DNA of 64,000 nt, taken from a phage. Location of the stretch: NCBI GenBank assembly GCA_018509705.1, contig GCA_018509705.1_3630.1. One strand, written 5' to 3'. How positions within the stretch are numbered: the stretch's first letter is position 1; the number at the start of each line of letters is the position of its first letter. The notes under the pieces were generated by a model. The model had not been told where the DNA came from. It did not search any database and saw nothing but the letters and a program-made list of their open reading frames with translations. The position numbers were made by a program, and so were the translations under genes. Positions 2,158-60,210 of the stretch are shown here, in pieces.

Positions 2158-2256
2158 GGTGCTAGGTGATGGAATCGAACCACCTATGTATTCAACGACT
2201 ACCTCGTCTATTTTCAGGATTAAAAATCCTCGCCCTTGCCAAAGGGCTTACCTAGC
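2158..2256 (-). tRNA. Aberrant tRNA-like element (good acceptor/D/T arms, irregular anticodon arm, over-long variable region); possible pseudo-tRNA
   Basis: Acceptor GCTAGGT/ACCTAGC pair, T-arm GGTGGTTCGATTCCATC, but anticodon stem does not close canonically and about 30 nt lie between anticodon arm and T-arm. Confidence 0.25.
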
Positions 2257-8756: not shown

Positions 8757-9470
8757 ATGCTGAATACTAAATTAATTGACAACCTGGAAAAACTATCCCA
8801 ACCTGAAAACTACCTTTGGTCTGCCAACTGGGTGGAAAACTGGAACCGTGTGGCAGCTAAAGTGAAAAAATCATACACACCATTCGAATTACAGCTTAGC
8901 TTCATTGAGGAAGAGTTCAATGAAGTTTTGGAAGAGCTGGAGAAAGGTGATGGTGGAGATCACCTGCTAAAAGAGGCCTGCGATCTTCACGTTGTCACAA
9001 GTTATGCAGCTTATCTTGTTAATGACAATCACGAAAAGTGGTCAAACCTGTTTGATAATCCACGAGGTCTTAAGTTCAAGATCGGTGAGTTCTATGACAC
9101 ACTGATCGCTGCGAAAAACACATCCAAGCAAAGAGCGTCAGCTTACCGTTTAGCGGAGTTGTCAACAGCTTTGCTGTTCCAGCTTCGCGGCGATGTGTGC
9201 GGGATGATGCGTAAGGTTCTCAAATCGAATGACAGCAAGTTTGCACGGGTCAACCATCTACGGTATTCACACGGTGCCAGTGCAGATATGCCTGCTGAAC
9301 AACTCATCGAGTTGGAGATTAAAGATCTTGAGCGACGCTTTGATGGTCGATATGAAGGTTTTGTTGCTAAGGAAGAATTCTACAACGGTAATAAAGTTAT
9401 CATATTCCTCGACAGTAAAGGTAAGATTATGAAGCCTTCAAGCTTCAAGGATGTAACAGAATATATTTAA
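8757..9470 (+). CDS. hypothetical protein, possible MazG/HisE-like all-alpha NTP pyrophosphatase
   Basis: FIEEEFNEVLEELEK ... EACDL resembles EExxE...D motif; weak. Confidence 0.3.
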   Translation: MLNTKLIDNLEKLSQPENYLWSANWVENWNRVAAKVKKSYTPFELQLSFIEEEFNEVLEELEKGDGGDHLLKEACDLHVVTSYAAYLVNDNHEKWSNLFDNPRGLKFKIGEFYDTLIAAKNTSKQRASAYRLAELSTALLFQLRGDVCGMMRKVLKSNDSKFARVNHLRYSHGASADMPAEQLIELEIKDLERRFDGRYEGFVAKEEFYNGNKVIIFLDSKGKIMKPSSFKDVTEYI

Positions 9471-9476
9471 TAATAT

Positions 9477-9500
9477 AGCCGGGGCGATCCCGGCTTTACT
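9477..9500 (+). terminator. Rho-independent terminator
   Basis: Hairpin AGCCGGG-GCGAT-CCCGGCT followed by T-rich stretch. Confidence 0.5.
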
Positions 9501-9534
9501 TGTTTCGGAAAGTATGCAAGTGAGGTAGAAAGTT

Positions 9535-9843
9535 ATGTACAAGCACTCCAGAGATCTTGAAAACGATGCTGTGTTTGGGGATCAGATGAAAGAATTGGTT
9601 AAACTTATAGGTAGGATAGAGGATAAGTTTGACACTAAGATCTACATCGACAGCAAAGTATTCAACCACAAAATATGGACAAATCTGTGTGTTGGACTAC
9701 ATGGAGATAAAGATGTGGTAAATTTAGTTGTAATTAAGTTCATAGTGTGGCAGAATAAAACTATAAATTATTACGATCCACACCTGCTTGTTTACCCGAT
9801 AAAAGACCTATTAGAGAAGGAGGACTGCAATGCCGTTATTTAA
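9535..9843 (+). CDS. hypothetical protein
   Basis: ORF track with AGGTAGAAAG upstream. Confidence 0.4.
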   Translation: MYKHSRDLENDAVFGDQMKELVKLIGRIEDKFDTKIYIDSKVFNHKIWTNLCVGLHGDKDVVNLVVIKFIVWQNKTINYYDPHLLVYPIKDLLEKEDCNAVI

Positions 9844-10099
9844 TCTTGCTAAACCTGTAGAAGCACACCAGTTTGACGGAAGCTCTTCATCAGTATCTGA
9901 TCTGCAACGGTGGATTGATACAGGTGTGTTTACATCGTCACCTGTTCGGACCAGAGATCTTCGTCGTATGTGTGAGCTTGTAGAGCCGTTTGGTAACCTA
10001 GTCTTGTACCAGGGTGATTGGCTTGTTGATTTTATGGGTGACTGGTTGGTAATGAGTAAAGAAGAGATGTTTAAAATTTTTAAGGAAGAGGTAGAGTAA
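9830..10099 (+). CDS. hypothetical protein
   Basis: ORF track; overlaps neighbours by a few nt (operon-like). Confidence 0.4.
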   Translation: MPLFNLAKPVEAHQFDGSSSSVSDLQRWIDTGVFTSSPVRTRDLRRMCELVEPFGNLVLYQGDWLVDFMGDWLVMSKEEMFKIFKEEVE

Positions 10100-11364
10100 T
10101 GCATCAATTCAAAACAACACTTTATGCTCGCAATAAAGACGGGTCCATCCAGATGTGGAAAGTAGATACAAGCGGCAACGAGGTTATTGTTGTGTTCGGC
10201 AGGGTTGGTGGCGCTGTACAATCAAAAACCACAAAATGTGAAGCCAAAAACATCGGGCGATCCAACGAAACTACAGCAGAAGAACAAGCTGTTTTAGAGG
10301 CGCAGTCTAAATGGGAAAAGCAAGTCCGGCTGGGTTACAAAGAAAATGTCGAAGACCTTGAGGCCATTGACATTTCACCTATGCTGGCGCAAGATGCTTC
10401 GAAAAAACCACACGCTATTGTGTATCCATGCCACCTGCAACACAAACTTGACGGGAACCGTTGCTTTGTCAAATTCGTAGACGGTGTACCTAAATTCATC
10501 TCTCGCGGTAACAAAGTGTATGAGCCGAAAGGTAACATCCTCCGTGAGCTACAAGACCTGCATGAAGAAACAGGCTTTGATGAATTTGATGGGGAGTTCT
10601 ACATTCACGGTTTACCGTTGCAGAAAATAACCTCCCTCGTTAAGAAATGGCGTAGTCTGGAAGACATTGAGAAAGAAATTGATAAGGATTTCATGGCAGA
10701 CATAAAACGCCGTGAGAAAGCGATCAAGGCCGGAGAGGAGACATGGAAAGACTTCAACAAGGTTGATCATCCGGTTTATGAAGAACCTGTCCGTGATTCT
10801 GATCGGTATGGAGGTTACTGCTCTTATGACCTGAAACTGATGGTGTTCGATGTTCCTGATTGCATCCATCGCTGGGAAGATCGGGCCACAAATCTTCAGG
10901 AAGTTATTGATTATTGTGAAGTTAACCATCTCACAAACGTCGAGGGTGTTCCTTTCAAGATCGCCTACAACGAGGAAGAGGTTCGCAACTCCATCGGACA
11001 GTACATGCAGGAAGGTTATGAAGGATCTATTATTCGTAACTTCTGTGGCACCTACGAATACGGTCAACGCTCTACTGATCTGCTCAAGTGGAAACTGTTC
11101 ACCGATGTTGAAGCAAAAGTGATCGGTGTTGAAAAAGATAAAAACGGGGAAGGTGTTCTTATCTGCGAAGAGAAAGATGGGACACAATGCAAATGCAAAA
11201 TGAAAGGCACTTTTGCCGTAAGGAACTACGAAAAATGCTGCTCATATGTTGGCAAATTTATCACGATAAAATTCCAACAGCGTACGGTGGACGGTGTGCC
11301 TCAATTCCCTGTGGGTATCGCATTCCGCAATCTTAATCCAGAAACTTGGGAGGTGCTGGAATAA
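10099..11364 (+). CDS. ATP-dependent DNA ligase
   Basis: Motif I KLDGNR, EGSIIRN (motif IV-like), C-terminal OB-like VPQFPVGIAFR. Confidence 0.7.
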   Translation: MHQFKTTLYARNKDGSIQMWKVDTSGNEVIVVFGRVGGAVQSKTTKCEAKNIGRSNETTAEEQAVLEAQSKWEKQVRLGYKENVEDLEAIDISPMLAQDASKKPHAIVYPCHLQHKLDGNRCFVKFVDGVPKFISRGNKVYEPKGNILRELQDLHEETGFDEFDGEFYIHGLPLQKITSLVKKWRSLEDIEKEIDKDFMADIKRREKAIKAGEETWKDFNKVDHPVYEEPVRDSDRYGGYCSYDLKLMVFDVPDCIHRWEDRATNLQEVIDYCEVNHLTNVEGVPFKIAYNEEEVRNSIGQYMQEGYEGSIIRNFCGTYEYGQRSTDLLKWKLFTDVEAKVIGVEKDKNGEGVLICEEKDGTQCKCKMKGTFAVRNYEKCCSYVGKFITIKFQQRTVDGVPQFPVGIAFRNLNPETWEVLE

Positions 11365-11976: not shown

Positions 11977-12649
11977 CGGGATTGACTGGTGGAGTGTCTT
12001 TAGATACGATACAGGCACTGGAAGGTTGTTTTGGAAGTCCCCACCAAAAAACAAACCTCAACTAATGGGAAAGGAGGCTGGATGTACTAACAACGGGTAC
12101 AGGGATATAGTCTATCGTGGCGTGCATTACTACAGGCATAGATTGGTGTGGGAGATGCATTATGGACCAATCCCAGAAGGGTACGAAGTTGATCACATAA
12201 AGCCACTTTTCTATTCCGACGGTGTTGCGGATGATAGGGTAGAAAACCTACAACTGTTAACACCAGAAGAAAATGCAAAAAAGGCGGCAGATGACGGATG
12301 CCTGGCACGCAAGATACCTAAATCCAATACTGGACATTTGGGTGTATATTTTCATGCTAGATCTGGAAGGTATGCTGCTTTTGGTAAGGTAGGTCATTAC
12401 TATAAGAAAGACCTAGGAGAATACGATACCTTAGAAGAGGCCATTGCTGCTCAAAAGTCTTTTGAAAGTGGCACGTTTGTCAGGGAATATCGTGGACAGC
12501 CTTTAGGGAGGGATAAATCTAGAGGTGTCAGATTTGAAGCAGATAGGGGCAAATGGAAAGTAACTTTCAGAGGAAAAACGCTAGGCAGGTTTGACACCAA
12601 AGAGTCTGCTGAAGCGTGTTACGCAAAGGCTCTTACTGAAAGCTTGTAA
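11954..12649 (+). CDS. HNH homing endonuclease with AP2-like DNA-binding region
   Basis: YEVDHIKP ... ENLQLLTPEEN HNH motif; C-terminal basic repeats. Confidence 0.65.
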   Translation: MELLQMSNGIDWWSVFRYDTGTGRLFWKSPPKNKPQLMGKEAGCTNNGYRDIVYRGVHYYRHRLVWEMHYGPIPEGYEVDHIKPLFYSDGVADDRVENLQLLTPEENAKKAADDGCLARKIPKSNTGHLGVYFHARSGRYAAFGKVGHYYKKDLGEYDTLEEAIAAQKSFESGTFVREYRGQPLGRDKSRGVRFEADRGKWKVTFRGKTLGRFDTKESAEACYAKALTESL

Positions 12650-46474: not shown

Positions 46475-47235
46475 CACACAATTAGCTACCCGGCTAAAGT
46501 GCTGGGAGCACCTATAACACATCTTTCAACTAAATTTCCCACCACCACAATCACTTACCTCCCACACATGACTGTTTGCTTGTTTAGTGAGCAGTCATGC
46601 CTTGACATTCTTGCCTATCCTGATAAAATTAAGTTCTTCTCTTTTCTTTTACCGAGTAATTCGGGTTTTCTGTTCTCTTCGGTTTGAAGGGGGTATGGAG
46701 ATACACCTGAGTGAACAGGGTGAACAACCGAACCATTGGCTATGGCATTAGCATGGCGAAGCGGACGGGTGACGAAAGAGGGGCCGGAGGACACCAGTCA
46801 CTGCCATATGATATATGGGTGATAACCTGAAGAATCTGAATAAGTGTTTAAGTACCAGTCAGAGGAAAAGGTGAATGGTAGCTGAAGGGGAGGGGGGTTT
46901 CTTGTATCTTTAATTTGTATATTATGTATACACTTGTAAACCAATTTCATCTGAATCTGTTTACCACACAAAGTGGATAGAGACAAATATTACCTATTAA
47001 ACTTGAATTATTTATAGAAAATACCACAACACCACTTAAGTCTTTGATTTTACACACAAATCCTGCAGATATTCAACCTCCATATTTAACATACTTGTAA
47101 CATATTCCATACTCTACCTGCCTGATCAATTTCCCCAACTACATCCCCCATATTTTCCCTGTCTGTACTACCCCTGCCCCGCCGGGAGTCCCGTCATATC
47201 TGGCTTTCCAGCAAATATCACACCCACAAATATCA

Positions 47236-47290
47236 TTGCCTGAAGAGGGTTTCATCCCATAATACCTGCCTTGCCTGAAGAGGGTTTCAT
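47236..47290. repeat. 20-bp direct repeat x2 (TTGCCTGAAGAGGGTTTCAT), 15-bp spacer
   Basis: Copies at 47236-47255 and 47271-47290. Confidence 0.7.
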
Positions 47291-47957
47291 ACGCCACGTA
47301 AATTTTTTAATTGACCCCTCCCCGCCGCCGGAAAGGTTGGCTTTTCTCGCACAGACCTGAAGAGTCAGCCAGAAATATCTGAATAGGCCCAATTCTACCC
47401 CGATTTTGACCTGACCTACAGGAGCGCTGCCCTGTCAGGAGCCGTAGCGACTGGAGTGCTGCCAGGCGGACGAAATGGGAATACTTCTCATTCTTATAAC
47501 AATTCTCAAATATCGAGGCAGTGAGGCAAATTAATAGGCCAGGCCGTTCACACAGTGGCACAACATTTGCAACCTATCCTGTGGGGATGAATGAGAATAC
47601 CTATCATTGTGAGAACCATTATCATTACGGGCAATTTAACATAATACCCATTATGCGCACCACTGGCGATACATACAGGGATTGATAACATGGGTTACTG
47701 TTTACGCACATAACAATTATATTTCTTACCATTTGTGTGGGATATAGTTAGCAGCCGATAGATTAGATATTAACCTGCAGACTTCTGACCGTCCAGACGT
47801 CTAAACGCCCACACACCAAGGATTATACATACACTCCTGAATGTAAACAGGGCCGCAAAAATGCTACCATACAAGCTTGTAAATTTTTCATGCAGCACTT
47901 GACAAAGAGGAGAAAAACTTGTCTGACATAATGTGACCTAACTGACACAACATGACA

Positions 47958-48048
47958 CTTTTACACACCTATTAGTTTACACACTGGATTGTTTACATTC
48001 CTGATTGTTCACATGCTAACCATTTACATGATTGACTGTTTACACACC
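47958..48048. repeat. Iteron array: six TTTACA/TTCACA-centred repeats with 15-16 bp periodicity
   Basis: Motif recurs at about 47961, 47977, 47993, 48008, 48024, 48040. Confidence 0.6.
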
Positions 48049-48057
48049 GATAATCAG

Positions 48058-48307
48058 CCATGCCATTCGTTTGCATGACAATAATTATACATGACAATAA
48101 TCGCACTGATTATAATTAGCATGACATAATATAAAAGCAGGGCAACTATTAGCAGATCTATAGTTGCCTTGCTTGTCATGTCATGATTAACTAAATACAA
48201 GGCAACTATGATCTGATTAATAGTTTGCAGACAAACTATCACGGGGGTGATGGTTACTGCTTTTATATTATGTCGCGACTCCGTCGCGCCATGCCATTCG
48301 TTTGCAT
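48058..48307. repeat. Composite element: perfect 19-bp direct repeats flanking a 212-bp AT-rich core full of inverted repeats
   Basis: CCATGCCATTCGTTTGCAT at 48058-48076 and 48289-48307; inner palindromes GGCAACTAT-N11-ATAGTTGCC and ACATAATATAAAAGCAG/CTGCTTTTATATTATGT. Confidence 0.6.
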
Positions 48308-48921
48308 AGTTGCCTTATTGTTACAGATAAAATAATTGTATTGTTAATTATTTCTTATCTTTCTATTAGTCATCTAATGATTTCAGTTAATATAGTAACG
48401 TACAGTAAACATTAGACGACTAAAGATTTCTCTGCTTATGGTAACCTAACGTGACAATTCCAGACTGTTTACGAAAAATGTTGACACCTGGGCCGATTTA
48501 TGTTATGCAGTTTACACGAATAATTATTTTATGCAGGTATTGACTATTCCGTTATTCTATGGTTGGAATAAATGCTTAGCAGGCTATAGAATGGCGAGCG
48601 TACGTAAATTCTGAGATCTGGCGGCTATAGTTATACTCGATTTTTCACGTAGAAAACGCTTTTGTAGTTATGTAAGTGTATGACTTATAAAGATTTTTAG
48701 TTGTTGACAAGCTATTGAAGATATGCATCAGGTTAAATTTTGTGCAAATGCTGCATTATGTGCAATTTTGGAAGGAAAAACGTGTAAAAATGGCCCTGCT
48801 ACCACACAATGAAAAATTATGCAATAGTTATTTTATATGTATGTTTGTACAGTGGGGTTAATTGCTGGCTTGTTGATTATTCCATTTGCCAGGCGGGGCC
48901 ATTTGTGGTAGGAAAAGAGGA

Positions 48922-48950
48922 GACAAAAAGAAAGGGGCTTTAAGCCCCTG
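48922..48950 (-). terminator. Rho-independent terminator closing the minus-strand early block
   Basis: AGGGGCTTTAAGCCCCT hairpin followed by T-run on minus strand. Confidence 0.6.
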
Positions 48951-49293: not shown

Positions 49294-49566
49294 TTACTTA
49301 TGGCGGCAGAATTCAAGTGTTTTTAATTGATAATCTTCCTCAGCCTGGAGTACGACCGCCTCGATCATTTCGTTGGCATTGTTAAAGCCATAACCTTTAG
49401 CGAACTCATCCGCGCCACCTTCGTGATCATGTTCTGCGTTCATCGCTTCCACAAAATGGAATTCCAAATTGTTGAGGTAGGGGCTTGATGTGCCGTCTTC
49501 TTTTTCGATGAGATCCCAAATAGCATTAAAACGTGATTCGACTTCTTGATTAATCCAGCTTGACAT
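49294..49566 (-). CDS. hypothetical acidic protein
   Basis: ORF track; leader hairpin GGGCAAAAGTGCCC upstream. Confidence 0.45.
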   Translation of the reverse strand: MSSWINQEVESRFNAIWDLIEKEDGTSSPYLNNLEFHFVEAMNAEHDHEGGADEFAKGYGFNNANEMIEAVVLQAEEDYQLKTLEFCRHK

Positions 49567-49777
49567 AGTGTTTTCCTCTCTCCTGGTTATTGTGTGGGCA
49601 CTTTTGCCCCTTCAAGATAAATGTTACCCCACCCCATGGCAGATGTCAACGGTTTTTATAGTTCTTATATGACAGGCAGGCCCGGTGATTGTCTCCACCC
49701 GTCGCCAGGTGCCTGCCGTGAAACAAGTATAACAAAAAACAGGACCATTGCAAGCCCTGTTTTGTAGTTTATAAGGA

Positions 49778-57737: not shown

Positions 57738-58136
57738 TTATTCGTGGGCGCATGTTACAATGTGTTTTTTATAGCCCAGGTGGTCAGCAAGTGCCGACAA
57801 AAACTCTTCTTCGTAGATCCAGCCGTCGGCAGTGATCCCCATAGCATTTAATGCGCTCTCAAGTGCTGCGTTAGCTTTATCGTAACCGTGACCGCTCGCC
57901 TTGCCGCCAGTATAACCGTACTTATTGTTCTTGTTGTCGTGAATCCAAAACACGCAGTAGTGAGTGTTCCCGCTGGCGGCGGCATAATACCGGATCTCAG
58001 CTACTTCGTGCAAATTATTGTCATCGTCCAGGCCCACCAGATTATAAGCCTTGTAAAATCCACGATCACGGCGGCAGTTCTTGACATCAGAAAAAGAAAA
58101 GTCCGCATTATCAAAATTAAAGGTAGTGGTTTTCAT
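57738..58136 (-). CDS. hypothetical protein
   Basis: ORF track. Confidence 0.45.
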   Translation of the reverse strand: MKTTTFNFDNADFSFSDVKNCRRDRGFYKAYNLVGLDDDNNLHEVAEIRYYAAASGNTHYCVFWIHDNKNNKYGYTGGKASGHGYDKANAALESALNAMGITADGWIYEEEFLSALADHLGYKKHIVTCAHE

Positions 58137-58200
58137 GATTTTATCCTCTTAGTGTCTTTTGTGTTTTTAGTGTATTTGGTGTCGGACTATATGTCAATAC

Positions 58201-58398
58201 TTATTTTTTATTAAACCAGTGGTTGATCTGTCCTTTTGTCAGGGCGCAACGATTAAGCTGTTGCCGGGTATAGCTCTGACCGCGACGGAATTTATAAAGG
58301 CCTTGCCCGTTGTTGATGGTTACGTCCACCTGGCAAACCATTTGATCGGTGACCACCTGGCGAGTGTTGCGACGTACTTTGATCCCGTATGCGTTCAT
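58201..58398 (-). CDS. hypothetical small basic protein
   Basis: AGAGGA RBS before ATG 58398. Confidence 0.4.
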   Translation of the reverse strand: MNAYGIKVRRNTRQVVTDQMVCQVDVTINNGQGLYKFRRGQSYTRQQLNRCALTKGQINHWFNKK

Positions 58399-58481
58399 AA
58401 ATTTATCCTCTTTACTGGTTAGTGCGGTGTTGTTCACCTTGTAGGGTAATAATACCATGATTAACCTTGTTGTCAACGATT

Positions 58482-58622
58482 ATTTTAAATTATTTTTATG
58501 ATAGAATCCACCTGCCGCCCCCGCCAGGTTAACCACCATTTTTTCGTACTCTTCTTTATGTTCCCGCGCTTCTGTATCATTAATCACTACATTTCCCAGG
58601 TGAGTAGCATTACCTTTCATTT
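58482..58622 (-). CDS. hypothetical small protein (46 aa)
   Basis: Strong GAGGAGG RBS; MKGNATHLGNVVINDTEAREHKEEYEKMVVNLAGAAGGFYHK... Confidence 0.35.
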
Positions 58623-58759
58623 TTGTACCTCCTCTTCAATTGTTTACCCTACAGCATGGGCCTACCAGGTTTGCAAGATTTCACCCTCTCCCACCTGGTC
58701 AGTTAGGTCCTGCCAGGTTGCAACGGTTAGCGCATCAGGTTAGAAAAATTTTTTGAAAA

Positions 58760-59030
58760 GGTGTTGACAGCGGCCCCGCCAGGGGGCACAATATACCTAT
58801 CGAAAGGACGGCAGGCACCGGTGACGGGGGAGACAACCACCGGGGATGGGCGCTGCATAAAATGAGAACGGTTATCATTATCATTTAAAAATTTATGCAA
58901 AAAATCCTTGCCTTCTTTGTCCTGTGTGATACTATAATAACAAGCCGGGGCAACAGGGGCCGGGAGACAATCACCGGGCCTGCCCGTTATTCTGCAAACG
59001 AGAATGATTATCATTCAAAATTCTAAATGA
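58760..59030 (+). ncRNA. two tandem homologous GC-rich structured units, each behind a promoter-like sequence; candidate small RNAs
   Basis: Unit 1 ...GGGGGAGACAACCACCGGGGA...AAATGAGAACGGTTATCATTATCATTT; unit 2 ...GGCCGGGAGACAATCACCGGGCC...AAACGAGAATGATTATCATTCAAAATT; TTGACA and TTGCCT-16-TACTAT upstream. Confidence 0.25.
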
Positions 59031-59224
59031 GAACTCCTCGCATTTAATAAATTTAATTAGCATGCTAATTACCCTCCGTAACAATTTCCTATAAAACAGT
59101 ATCCCATAAAATATTCCCATATAGAAATTTTAAAAATCCATTTCTGAAAACGAAAAATCGATTTCGTCCCCAAAAATTTCAGGTCGAGAGCTGGAACGAT
59201 TTCCAGAAAATCCGATTCAGAAAA

Positions 59225-59315
59225 CGAAAAACAGATCGAGTACTTGGAAATTTATCGAGAAAAATTTTCAGAAAATTCAATCTTTGAAACGAAAAACAGA
59301 TCGAGTACTTGGAAA
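59225..59315. repeat. perfect 26-bp direct repeat x2 inside an AT-rich GAAAA-repeat tract
   Basis: CGAAAAACAGATCGAGTACTTGGAAA at 59225-59250 and 59290-59315. Confidence 0.65.
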
Positions 59316-59620
59316 GCTGTACCGCAACTTCAAGATAGTGGCTGGATTATTGCCATAAAAGGCCAAGGGCGAGTGGGAAAGTTCTGGTAGAAGGGTGTGA
59401 GCATACGCGGAAAATCTGGAATGGTAGCCCGGAATATGACGCAAACGATAGGATGAGTGGTTCAGCTCATCGTGTCTACCCTGAAAAATCCATTTTAGTT
59501 TTCGATCCGTTTTCTGATTTTCTAAGAATTTTAAAATATCTGGCCTGGTGAAATATCAAAAAGGAGGAAATCCATTTTAGAAATCCCCCTTATACTTGAT
59601 ATGCCAGAAATTTTCAAGTA

Positions 59621-59950
59621 TCAGCTATCTTTGTTTTTAGGTTTATACATGCGGAGAGGTATAGTCTTTGTAACATTCCACTTCCTCAACCCTTCCCAGC
59701 TCCAATTGTGGGCGTGGTATCCGGTTATGCATGCACTGCTAGAGTGATCGTAAGCATAAGAGAACGCTAAGCGCACCAGGTGAGGCCAGTCCTTCCACGG
59801 TTGTGGCCCGTAAGCTTTTCTCCAACACCGACACAAACTAAATGTCTCAAGGATAGGAAGGATAACAAACCCATACACTGTAACCAAAATAGTCAGTGCA
59901 ATGATTGTCAGGAACACATACCCTGCAGTTGAAATGATGATCTCTGTCAT
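59621..59950 (-). CDS. membrane protein
   Basis: N-terminal TM IIISTAGYVFLTIIALTILVTVYGFVILPIL. Confidence 0.45.
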   Translation of the reverse strand: MTEIIISTAGYVFLTIIALTILVTVYGFVILPILETFSLCRCWRKAYGPQPWKDWPHLVRLAFSYAYDHSSSACITGYHAHNWSWEGLRKWNVTKTIPLRMYKPKNKDS

Positions 59951-60210
59951 TTGTCGTCCCCTTTCTTACGGATATAAATGTGAGAACCTGCCTGTATATA
60001 AATTTCTCGACCATCTTCTGCAAAGATGTGGAATACACGATCACCTTCGTACTCGATACGAGATATCTTCATGATTGTCTTTCCACCTGGGATGCGGATC
60101 TCGTCTCCCACAGCGATGTTCCATGCAGATTTAAGCTTAAACATCCGCACCCTCCTTTGGGAACTCGAATTCTGGCATAGCCATATACGCCACAACAGGG
60201 TTGTAATCAA
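59947..60210 (-). CDS. hypothetical small protein
   Basis: ORF track; overlaps neighbours by 4 nt. Confidence 0.4.
   Translation of the reverse strand: MITTLLWRIWLCQNSSSQRRVRMFKLKSAWNIAVGDEIRIPGGKTIMKISRIEYEGDRVFHIFAEDGREIYIQAGSHIYIRKKGDDK

Follow-up and report, generated by a model that had tools for sequence, protein, structure and literature searches.

The stretch of DNA analysed here (64,000 nucleotides of contig GCA_018509705.1_3630.1, hereafter the window) comes from an rV5-like Vequintavirus, a phage of Escherichia coli. This report concerns a non-coding tract at about 58,640-59,620, which lies between minus-strand genes and carries two promoter-leader units, palindromes resembling operators of the iron regulator Fur and an array of long direct repeats (iterons). 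Its neighbours are small minus-strand early genes whose products have unknown functions. The 1.3 kb around the tract matched 122 phage records, nearly all of them Escherichia phages of the genus Vequintavirus, and phage ime was the nearest match (96.6%). The rV5 genome map carries a region labelled "non-coding" (PMC3606486). An initial annotation, made from the letters of the window, had placed about 1 kb without credible open reading frames (ORFs) from position 58,480 onwards. This holds for ~58,640-59,620 but not for 58,480-58,620 (minus strand), which is a real small gene with AGGAGG 8 nt ahead of its ATG, a match to phrog_21957 and a 33-nt in-frame indel among relatives; the gene-free tract therefore begins near 58,640. 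A protein-coding tract was rejected, because the GenBank ORF calls within it disagree between records, and in phages Alma and pangalan the annotated ORFs are disrupted by indels of 1 and 2 nt.

Both of the homologous units described in the initial annotation, each a GC-rich segment with an AT-rich tail, were present at the positions given, and each is preceded by a sigma-70-like promoter. Promoter PA (58,764-58,792, plus strand) consists of TTGACA (58,764-58,769), a 17-nt spacer and CACAAT (58,787-58,792), scored 10/12 in a consensus scan and is directed against the flanking minus-strand genes. Promoter PB (58,908-58,938, plus strand), read from the sequence, consists of TTGCCT (58,908-58,913), a 16-nt spacer and an extended -10, (TGa)TACTAT (58,930-58,935), overlapped by a perfect TATAAT (58,933-58,938); it fell narrowly outside the criteria of a simple promoter scan. 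Across seven Vequintavirus genomes only the spacer of PA changed, and the sole variable position of PB was 58,913 (-35 position 6, C/T). In other genera the hexamers and their spacing are kept while the spacer sequence varies (homologous promoter P2: TTGCAA, TTGACC or TTGCCA, a 17-nt spacer, TATATT or GATAAT).

Unit A (58,799-58,858, plus strand) is a GC-rich (62%), hairpin-prone leader with GGGAGACAACCACC in its apical part; its core GGGAGACAACCACCGGG lies at 58,828-58,844 and its tail GAGAACGGTTATCATTATCATT at 58,864-58,885. Unit B (58,941-58,995, plus strand) is a GC-rich hairpin that displays GGGAGACAATCACC; CTGCCCGTTATTCTGCAAAC comes next and leads into the palindrome called box B1 below. 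The core of this unit, GGGAGACAATCACCGGG, lies at 58,962-58,978 and its tail GAGAATGATTATCATTC at 59,000-59,016. The 17-nt core occurs in three copies in the window at one mismatch or fewer vs. 0.10 expected. The third copy was absent from the initial annotation and belongs to unit C (49,673-49,753, minus strand; core at 49,681-49,697), a paralogue of units A and B in which TTGCAA, a 16-nt spacer and TATACT are followed by GGCAGGCACCTGGCGACGGGTGGAGACAATCACCGGGCCTGCC. A sigma-70 promoter formed by the core itself (GAGACA, 18-nt spacer, TATTCT) was rejected, as the spacing suits unit B only and not A or C.

The AT-rich tails are present in both units, but their reading as RNA tails gave way to a different one, in which they are palindromic DNA operators of the Fur type. 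Box A (58,860-58,886) is composed of two overlapping 21-mers, matches GATAATGATAATCATTATC at 16 of 19 positions and scored 22.0 bits. Box B1 (58,996-59,016; AAACGAGAATGATTATCATTC) scored 24.1 bits and matches the Fur consensus at 15 of 19 positions. Box B2 (59,025-59,045; AAATGAGAACTCCTCGCATTT), 29 bp past B1, scored 19.5 bits; it matches the Fur consensus at only 9 of 19 positions and is counted as a box by its matrix score. The matrix used for the scan of the 64-kb window was trained without any rV5-like sequence and, at a threshold of 12 bits, found six sites (0.32 expected, and at most two in 100 shuffles), all of them in two non-coding tracts. The three sites outside the tract studied here start at 47,473, 47,589 and 47,607 (47,473-47,627; 24.0, 15.0 and 13.0 bits with this independent matrix).

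The Fur 7-1-7 consensus is TGATAATnATTATCA. The box consensus AAATGAGAATnATTCTCATTT is likewise a 7-1-7 inverted repeat (TGAGAATnATTCTCA), one base per half-site off the Fur consensus (12/14 matches). The reciprocal test used a weight matrix built from 28 phage boxes only, which was scanned over 26 kb of the E. coli ent-fep cluster: its top seven hits all fell in the classical Fur-regulated divergent promoter regions fepB-entC, fepA-fes and fepD-entS, which make up 2.8% of that DNA. Judged by their sequence, the boxes resemble Fur operators. Their half-sites decay independently, with no compensating change in the opposite arm, which fits protein-bound DNA, and an RNA-hairpin reading of the boxes was rejected on this ground. 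Two further readings of the boxes were discarded: a Fur-repressed minus-strand promoter over them, since the -10 candidates (NNGAAT) lack a conserved A2 across genera, and a CRISPR-like array, which 21-bp palindromes with 8-bp spacers do not resemble.

Beyond the boxes lies a perfect 18-bp palindrome, TAATTAGCATGCTAATTA (59,054-59,071), read from the sequence and nearly invariant in the genus. It is followed by the iteron array (59,120-59,315, plus strand, GC 33%), in which three 57-nt copies (AAAATCCNATTYWG ... GAAAACGAAAAACAGATCGAGTAC) at 59,120, 59,194 and 59,259 are 74 and 65 bp apart. The 26-bp direct repeat already noticed by the initial annotation (CGAAAAACAGATCGAGTACTTGGAAA, exact at 59,225-59,250 and 59,290-59,315, 65 bp apart, 0 expected by chance) is the 3' part of this 57-nt family. 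That it serves as a binding site, as first proposed, appears reasonable for an iteron-like array conserved across genera. The segment 58,996-59,318 (GC 29-33%) is among the three lowest-GC places of the window. Next to the iterons, a fast-evolving segment (59,319-59,482, plus strand) keeps an RNA fold, with RNAalifold energies of -29.5 kcal/mol on the plus strand vs. -14.2 on the minus strand. In this fold, which was derived from the same sequences, only seven close genomes, 96.8% of cells were paired (37-46% in slid controls), many pairs were G-U, four pairs were compensated and the covariation score was reached by 0 of 500 shuffles. It may form a 3' structured domain of a plus-strand non-coding transcript. 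The right edge of this plus-strand island is a terminator-like hairpin read from the sequence (59,551-59,589, minus strand; GGGGGA...TCCTCC, then TTTTTGATATTT), which sits at the end of the upstream minus-strand gene 59,621-59,950 and whose consensus fold is stronger on the minus strand (-30.7 vs. -21.5 kcal/mol).

Towards the left edge, 58,650-58,724 holds two copies of GG(G/T)CCT(A/G)CCAGGTT(T)GCAA. On the minus strand this reads TTGCAAACCTGG, the context in which the -35 of early promoters typically lies in these phages, and expression of the small gene 58,480-58,620 is probably driven by one of the copies. There is a 14-nt indel between relatives in this region.

Conservation in relatives was clear for the units. 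When seven Vequintavirus genomes were aligned and mean pairwise identity was calculated per segment, promoter, unit and tail reached 97.7% for A and 98.2% for B, far above the flanking small ORF and its upstream region (76-87%). The iterons reached 93.8% and 59,319-59,482 reached 88.1%. Sensitive blastn searches found the 3' part of unit B and its tail in other Vequintavirinae genera (Mydovirus, Seunavirus, Certrevirus, Henunavirus and Avunavirus), in Stephanstirmvirinae (Phapecoctavirus and Justusliebigvirus) and in Aeromonas phage 2L372X. The block GAGACAAWCACC-N5-CTGCCCGYYATTCTGCAAAT followed by the box is kept in primary sequence and fixed spacing across Vequintavirinae and Stephanstirmvirinae. 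The 17-mer GAGAATGATTATCATTC of box B1 is identical in phiTE, Mydovirus, GAP31, Av-05 and Aeromonas phage 2L372X, and the 29-bp box period recurs in phiTE, ESCO5, KaOmega, GAP31, Mydovirus and ECO340P2. In the genera examined of both subfamilies, the first box adjoins the 3' end of a 64-nt leader segment, which would place it at about +60 from a transcription start judged from the -10 position (about +61 to +87 for box A and the presumed PA start).

The other genera share a common layout, always on the strand opposite to the flanking genes: a sigma-70-like promoter P1, a GC-rich unit A' of ~95 nt, GTAAA-N5-GTAAA, P2, unit B, one to six boxes, often exactly 29 bp apart, AAAAATTTTTTCG, three ~75-bp repeats ending (T)CGATCGAGAACC, and then TTTGAGATAA repeats. 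In rV5-like phages unit A' is absent and unit A, the paralogue of unit B, stands in its place. Triplets of ~75-bp units ending (T)CGATCGAGAACC were found in GAP31, 4MG, GEC_vB_MG, Mydovirus, Av-05 and TH18; the repeats of phiTE and KaOmega are more numerous and less regular, and Hena1 has a diverged version. Aeromonas phage 2L372X has boxes and iteron-like motifs (two GATCGAGA-like copies) behind a longer, unrelated GC-rich leader. The phi92-like Stephanstirmvirinae keep promoters, leader and boxes, and different repeats replace the iterons. Several genera carry a small plus-strand ORF, from heterogeneous families, just upstream of P1, which confirms the plus-strand island. The TTTGAGATAA motif occurs as two or three repeats past the iterons at loci L004, L005, L007, L008 and L010, and the window has only the variant CTTCAAGATAG, at ~59,330.

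Unit A' deserves separate mention. At 23 loci (L003 1314-1419, L005 1305-1409, L007 1373-1472 and 20 others) it is a ~95-nt plus-strand element behind P1, with an invariant CGCC/GGCG hairpin, a hairpin of variable length with compensatory changes and no Rfam match. A loop CCCC can pair with a downstream GGGG, and both are changed to CCAA/UUGG in Hena1-like and FKP3-like phages; the element looks like an undescribed pseudoknotted phage RNA. In most non-rV5 genera a perfect GTAAA-N5-GTAAA, the CpxR-box consensus, lies just upstream of the P2 -35 (L003 ~1424-1445, L005 ~1420-1440, L007 ~1479-1498). The window does not contain this motif.

The same boxes occur in phage T5. Its injection stop signal (9,140-10,149) contains boxes at 9,551, 9,586, 9,609, 9,655 and 9,690, scoring up to 33 bits; those at 9,551, 9,655 and 9,690 reach 26-33 bits with the rV5-family matrix. 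The 29-nt ESCO5 box TAAATGCGAATCATTATCATTTGCATTTC matches T5 at 28 of 29 positions. Davison, comparing 25 T5-like phages, described these palindromes (palE-palJ, DRC) as conserved elements without a known function and did not mention Fur (10.1101/866236). The surrounding Untranslated Repeat Region 3 (left terminal repeat, 9.1-10.4 kb) resembles the tract in being gene-free and better conserved than the neighbouring ORFs (10.1101/866236), in its array of AAATGAGAATCATT-type palindromes followed by direct repeats, and in the transcription directed into it from upstream. Its DRD repeats, GTGCAAATCCGACA, have a core (AAATCCGA) that recurs in the AAAATCCGATTCAG of the window, and after them TTGAGATAA occurs twice, a motif also found past the iterons in Mydovirus, GAP31, 4MG, Hena1 and ESCO5. 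Two TTGAGATA motifs stand after DRD, and the TTTGAGATAA motif occurs twice, at 10,120 and 10,140, ~80-100 bp short of where the left terminal repeat ends. The GTAAA-N5-GTAAA of the non-rV5 genera has a counterpart in Repeat Region 1 of T5, at ~5,077 (TTTGTAAAGAAACGTAAAGA). There are differences as well: T5 has paired DnaA boxes (IRD'-spacer-IRC') and the window tract has none; T5 lacks promoter and GC-rich leader cassettes; and its region lies at the boundary of the terminal repeat in a phage with two-step injection, whereas rV5-like genomes are reported to be circularly permuted (PMC3475682). In the T5-like phage chee24 (an IMG/VR contig), the boxes and two perfect DnaA boxes stand side by side where the left terminal repeat has its inner end.

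Boxes that are identical or nearly so were found in phages of E. coli, Klebsiella, Cronobacter, Pectobacterium, Erwinia, Proteus, Salmonella and Aeromonas. When the T5 first-step-transfer proteins were compared with the window, the only homologue was a weak match of hegG (an HNH homing endonuclease, E 3e-06) at 11,999-12,322, far from the tract, and shared T5 pre-early proteins (A1, A2 and others) were rejected as an explanation. Consequently, the shared boxes are best explained by a common host factor, and this is the likely binder.

What is established here is which sequence elements the tract contains, how they are ordered and conserved, and that the boxes are Fur-like; transcription, Fur binding in vivo and gating are what we infer from this. 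The model that we prefer, and hold tentatively as falling somewhat short of probable, is that the tract acts in cis as a control hub: host Fur would gate the non-coding transcription that runs on the plus strand into the iterons. The island would be ~0.8 kb long, plus-strand and ORF-free, opposing the flow of early genes and extending from a divergent promoter region at ~58.7 kb to the convergent terminator at 59.55-59.59 kb. Its two tandem sigma-70 promoters would each transcribe a short GC-rich leader hairpin, the third leader copy heading an mRNA at 49.7 kb, and polymerase would reach Fur-type operators ~60 nt past each start. Iron-loaded Fur on the boxes would act as a roadblock or conditional terminator just past the hairpin, so that only short leader RNAs are made; with Fur off the DNA, read-through would cross the AT-rich iterons and the structured 3' segment. 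This read-through could couple the iron state of the host to a DNA process at the iterons (protein binding, possibly replication initiation) or to a long antisense or non-coding RNA. A plus-strand RNA is supported by the strand-specific, G-U-rich pairing of 59,319-59,482 and by the structure of unit A' in other genera. A GC-rich hairpin around the core is possible in each clade, in some via G-U pairs, which makes an RNA leader plausible though unproven.

Several observations weigh against this model. The boxes lie ~+60 downstream of PA, PB and P2 and overlap no -35 or -10 of a conserved promoter, and a roadblock at this distance is not an established Fur mechanism. They retain GAGAAT where the Fur consensus has GATAAT, which leaves room for another binder (Zur-like or a phage protein). 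The plus-strand transcript would have no clear terminator, the leader has a conserved primary sequence without an assigned role, unit C lies upstream of the minus-strand gene 49,294-49,566 and has no box, and the fold of the 3' segment was derived from the seven close genomes on which it was assessed.

Not all of the rival explanations are mutually exclusive. The initial annotation saw duplicated small RNA genes in the units, and this was only partly upheld: own promoters, paralogy and near-invariance agree with it, but there are no terminators, folding is weak and cross-genus covariation is missing. In its full form, units A, B and C would be stand-alone trans-acting small RNAs pairing with host or phage mRNAs via an exposed GGGAGACAAYCACC loop, which we consider improbable. 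A promoter for every unit, three paralogues sharing an invariant loop-like core of 13-17 nt, extreme conservation within the genus and the neighbouring unit A' of other genera, which resembles a genuine structured RNA, would all fit, and in 16 of 24 homologues folding favours the sense strand over the antisense. However, the mean folding z-scores over these homologues were only -1.0 (sense) and -0.7 (antisense). In the window, z-scores against shuffles were -2.1 for unit A (-2.14 sense vs. -1.79 antisense in the run giving a minimum free energy of -20.1 kcal/mol), -1.28 for B and -2.76 for C (-23.9 kcal/mol) on the sense strand, and -1.8 for A and -0.4 for B on the antisense strand. RNAalifold, used for the suggested check of covariation in relatives, recovered 0 pairs over 23 homologues, and close variants of the units carry uncompensated changes (e.g. 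CC-to-GG in locus L162 relative to the window). A scan of 58,000-60,200 detected no intrinsic terminator on the plus strand after unit A or B, the unit hairpins being trailed by GUUAUUCUGC or AUAAAAUG and not by a U-run, and unit C is the 5' leader of an mRNA. We found no complementary target elsewhere in the window, and blastn against 5,426 E. coli genomes gave no match. Alternatively, the boxes may be operators of a phage-encoded or other non-Fur protein (e.g. Zur-like) that merely look like Fur boxes, which seems unlikely to us. GAGAAT, and not GATAAT, is kept in nearly all genera, the 29-bp period is out of step with the 6-bp hexamer register of Fur, and the outer arms AAATG/CATTT extend beyond the classical Fur 19-mer and resemble the Zur box. 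On the other hand, the phage-derived matrix picks out genuine Fur operators, GAGAAT half-sites are present in known Fur sites such as the aerobactin promoter, and T5-like, rV5-like, phi92-like and Aeromonas phages share the boxes with no T5 first-step-transfer homologue in the window, weak hegG aside.

A replication origin is a further reading and, in our view, a rather doubtful one, though less so than the two above. The promoters would provide activating or priming transcripts, the AT-rich zone of boxes and iterons would be the site of unwinding and initiator binding, and the boxes would recruit a host architectural protein. At least three direct repeats stand beside an AT-rich region, as in iteron origins; the three iterons (65-77-bp spacing) are conserved across Vequintavirinae genera, 58,996-59,318 is poor in GC, and transcription is always aimed at boxes and iterons. 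In T5-like phages paired DnaA boxes adjoin the same boxes, which has been likened to oriC, but this counterpart region is not where electron microscopy placed the T5 origins (10.1101/866236). The rV5 origin has never been located and skew analysis failed to place it (PMC3606486); in the window, cumulative GC skew turns only at ~6-7 kb and ~47-48 kb, where gene orientation changes, as that paper likewise reported. The tract contains no TTWTNCACA (nine in the window vs. 8.4 expected) and no enrichment of GATC, so that DnaA boxes and Dam/GATC clustering were both rejected. Moreover, no initiator gene is adjacent, the neighbours encoding small proteins of unknown function, and Stephanstirmvirinae have unrelated repeats in place of the iterons. 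It is quite unlikely, finally, that the arrays have no cis role and are simply Fur decoys, which on hundreds of replicating genomes would titrate Fur and de-repress the iron-uptake regulon of the host. Multicopy Fur boxes do titrate Fur, the principle of the Fur titration assay. The boxes are arrayed (six in the window, one to six at the homologous tract of relatives), lie in non-coding DNA away from promoters and recur in 69 of 120 metagenomic viral contigs having one exact box, often clustered. Nevertheless, their fixed place after promoter and leader and before the iterons is conserved across families, which argues for a cis role, and Fur is abundant, so that late titration may come too late.

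The tract can be compared with several known systems. Like the Fur operators of Enterobacteria (fepA-fes, fepB-entC, fepD-entS), the phage boxes have a 7-1-7 palindromic core and are arrayed or overlapping; unlike them, they lie off the -35/-10, have G for T at half-site position 4, carry the longer AAATG/CATTT arms and the 29-bp period, and are located in a virulent phage. Tandem promoters followed by AT-rich repeats recall the primary origin of T7 (two tandem promoters and an AT-rich region), oriF/oriG of T4, the lambda origin and plasmid iterons, but the tract has no initiator gene, DnaA boxes or skew signal, and its iteron period is 65-77 bp vs. ~20 bp. Paralogous short hairpins directly downstream of several early promoters, with a conserved GACAA-containing loop, are reminiscent of HK022 put and lambda/P22 nut boxB (the P22 boxB loop is GACAA); in the tract, however, a boxB-like stem is not conserved, and there is no boxA, known N/Q homologue or identified downstream terminator. 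RyhB, a Fur-controlled small RNA, is likewise a short RNA associated with a Fur box. Its Fur box overlaps the promoter and a strong terminator ends the RNA, whereas in the tract the box is downstream and there is no terminator; the units have no sequence similarity to RyhB.

Fur operators, iteron arrays, promoter-proximal leaders, the T5 repeat region and the rV5 non-coding region are already known. What appears to be new, as far as we found, is that the palindromes are of the Fur type, that virulent phages carry them in arrays and that the module is homologous between rV5-like, phi92-like, Aeromonas and T5-like phages. A literature search, which left most subscription journals outside, retrieved nothing on Fur boxes in lytic phages or on RNAs, origins or transcriptomes of rV5-like phages. 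Fur-operator arrays may represent a shared, hitherto unrecognised building block of conserved untranslated regions in virulent phages that infect Enterobacteria and Aeromonas and belong to several unrelated families (rV5-like, phi92-like, Plateaulakevirus, the T5 injection stop). The phage DNA itself would then be where the iron regulator of the host is bound, so as to gate non-coding transcription or DNA transactions by iron status or to titrate Fur; we regard this generalisation as possible, with considerable doubt. If Fur does bind the arrays, large virulent coliphages with uses in therapy and typing (rV5-like, phi92-like, T5-like) would sense the iron status of their host, or manipulate it, via DNA sites and not via proteins. 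The T5 injection-stop palindromes, without an assigned function for nearly 40 years, would gain their first concrete identity, and the T5 puzzle would be tied to a homologous module of myophages that have circularly permuted genomes and are not known to inject their DNA in two steps. In phages with an unmapped origin, the iteron array would at present be the best candidate for a DNA site that acts in cis (an origin or another DNA transaction).

Box arrays were also seen outside these groups. An IMG/VR scan for the exact box returned many viral contigs, and the 69 of 120 mentioned above had at least two boxes. Arrays in unrelated viral contigs (L086 1-300, L066 ~1100-1200, L106 40-120 and 2180-2290, L058 8070-8300) include one in which a box is fused to a run of seven GAGAAT hexamers and one with three tandem GAGAATGATTCTCATT units, and such arrays usually adjoin other direct repeats. 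The second box-bearing tract of the window (46,800-48,950) is ~2 kb of non-coding DNA on which plus-strand late and minus-strand early genes converge, with the lowest GC in the window. Besides its three Fur-like boxes it has many TGTTTAC(A/G)C-type and CATGACAATAAT-type repeats, and it may correspond to the box marked "non-coding" on the map of the rV5 genome.

Other candidate identities for the units were excluded. A known RNA family was rejected, since the Rfam/Infernal scan suggested in the initial annotation gave no match in the tract at the gathering threshold and only chance hits at E<=10, with nothing at E<=1 at six homologous loci. A tRNA remnant was rejected because ARAGORN detected no tRNA at the locus or at any homologue, despite a tRNA-Met in a Klebsiella phage record. 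In that phage, K45PH128C2 (OY978796.1, locus L004, 878-1573), three annotated tRNA genes, one of them over the unit B/box region, are unsupported by ARAGORN, and the tRNA coordinates of the record therefore appear displaced. A mimic of the phiTE pseudo-ToxI antitoxin was rejected, as that locus lies at 106.7 kb of phiTE, away from this tract, and so was a lambda/P22 boxB-like hairpin, whose stem is not conserved.

Among the matches to the tract region were 16 "Campylobacter phage" records (host C. jejuni), 89-99% identical over the tract and several of them unannotated; these are probably mislabelled or contaminant genomes. Elsewhere in the window, a cluster of seven tRNA genes (1,913-2,725) includes a 99-nt tRNA-like gene (2,158-2,256, minus strand) with a 26-nt insertion, for which ARAGORN reported a four-base anticodon (atcc) and which barely passed the Rfam tRNA threshold (35.5 bits).

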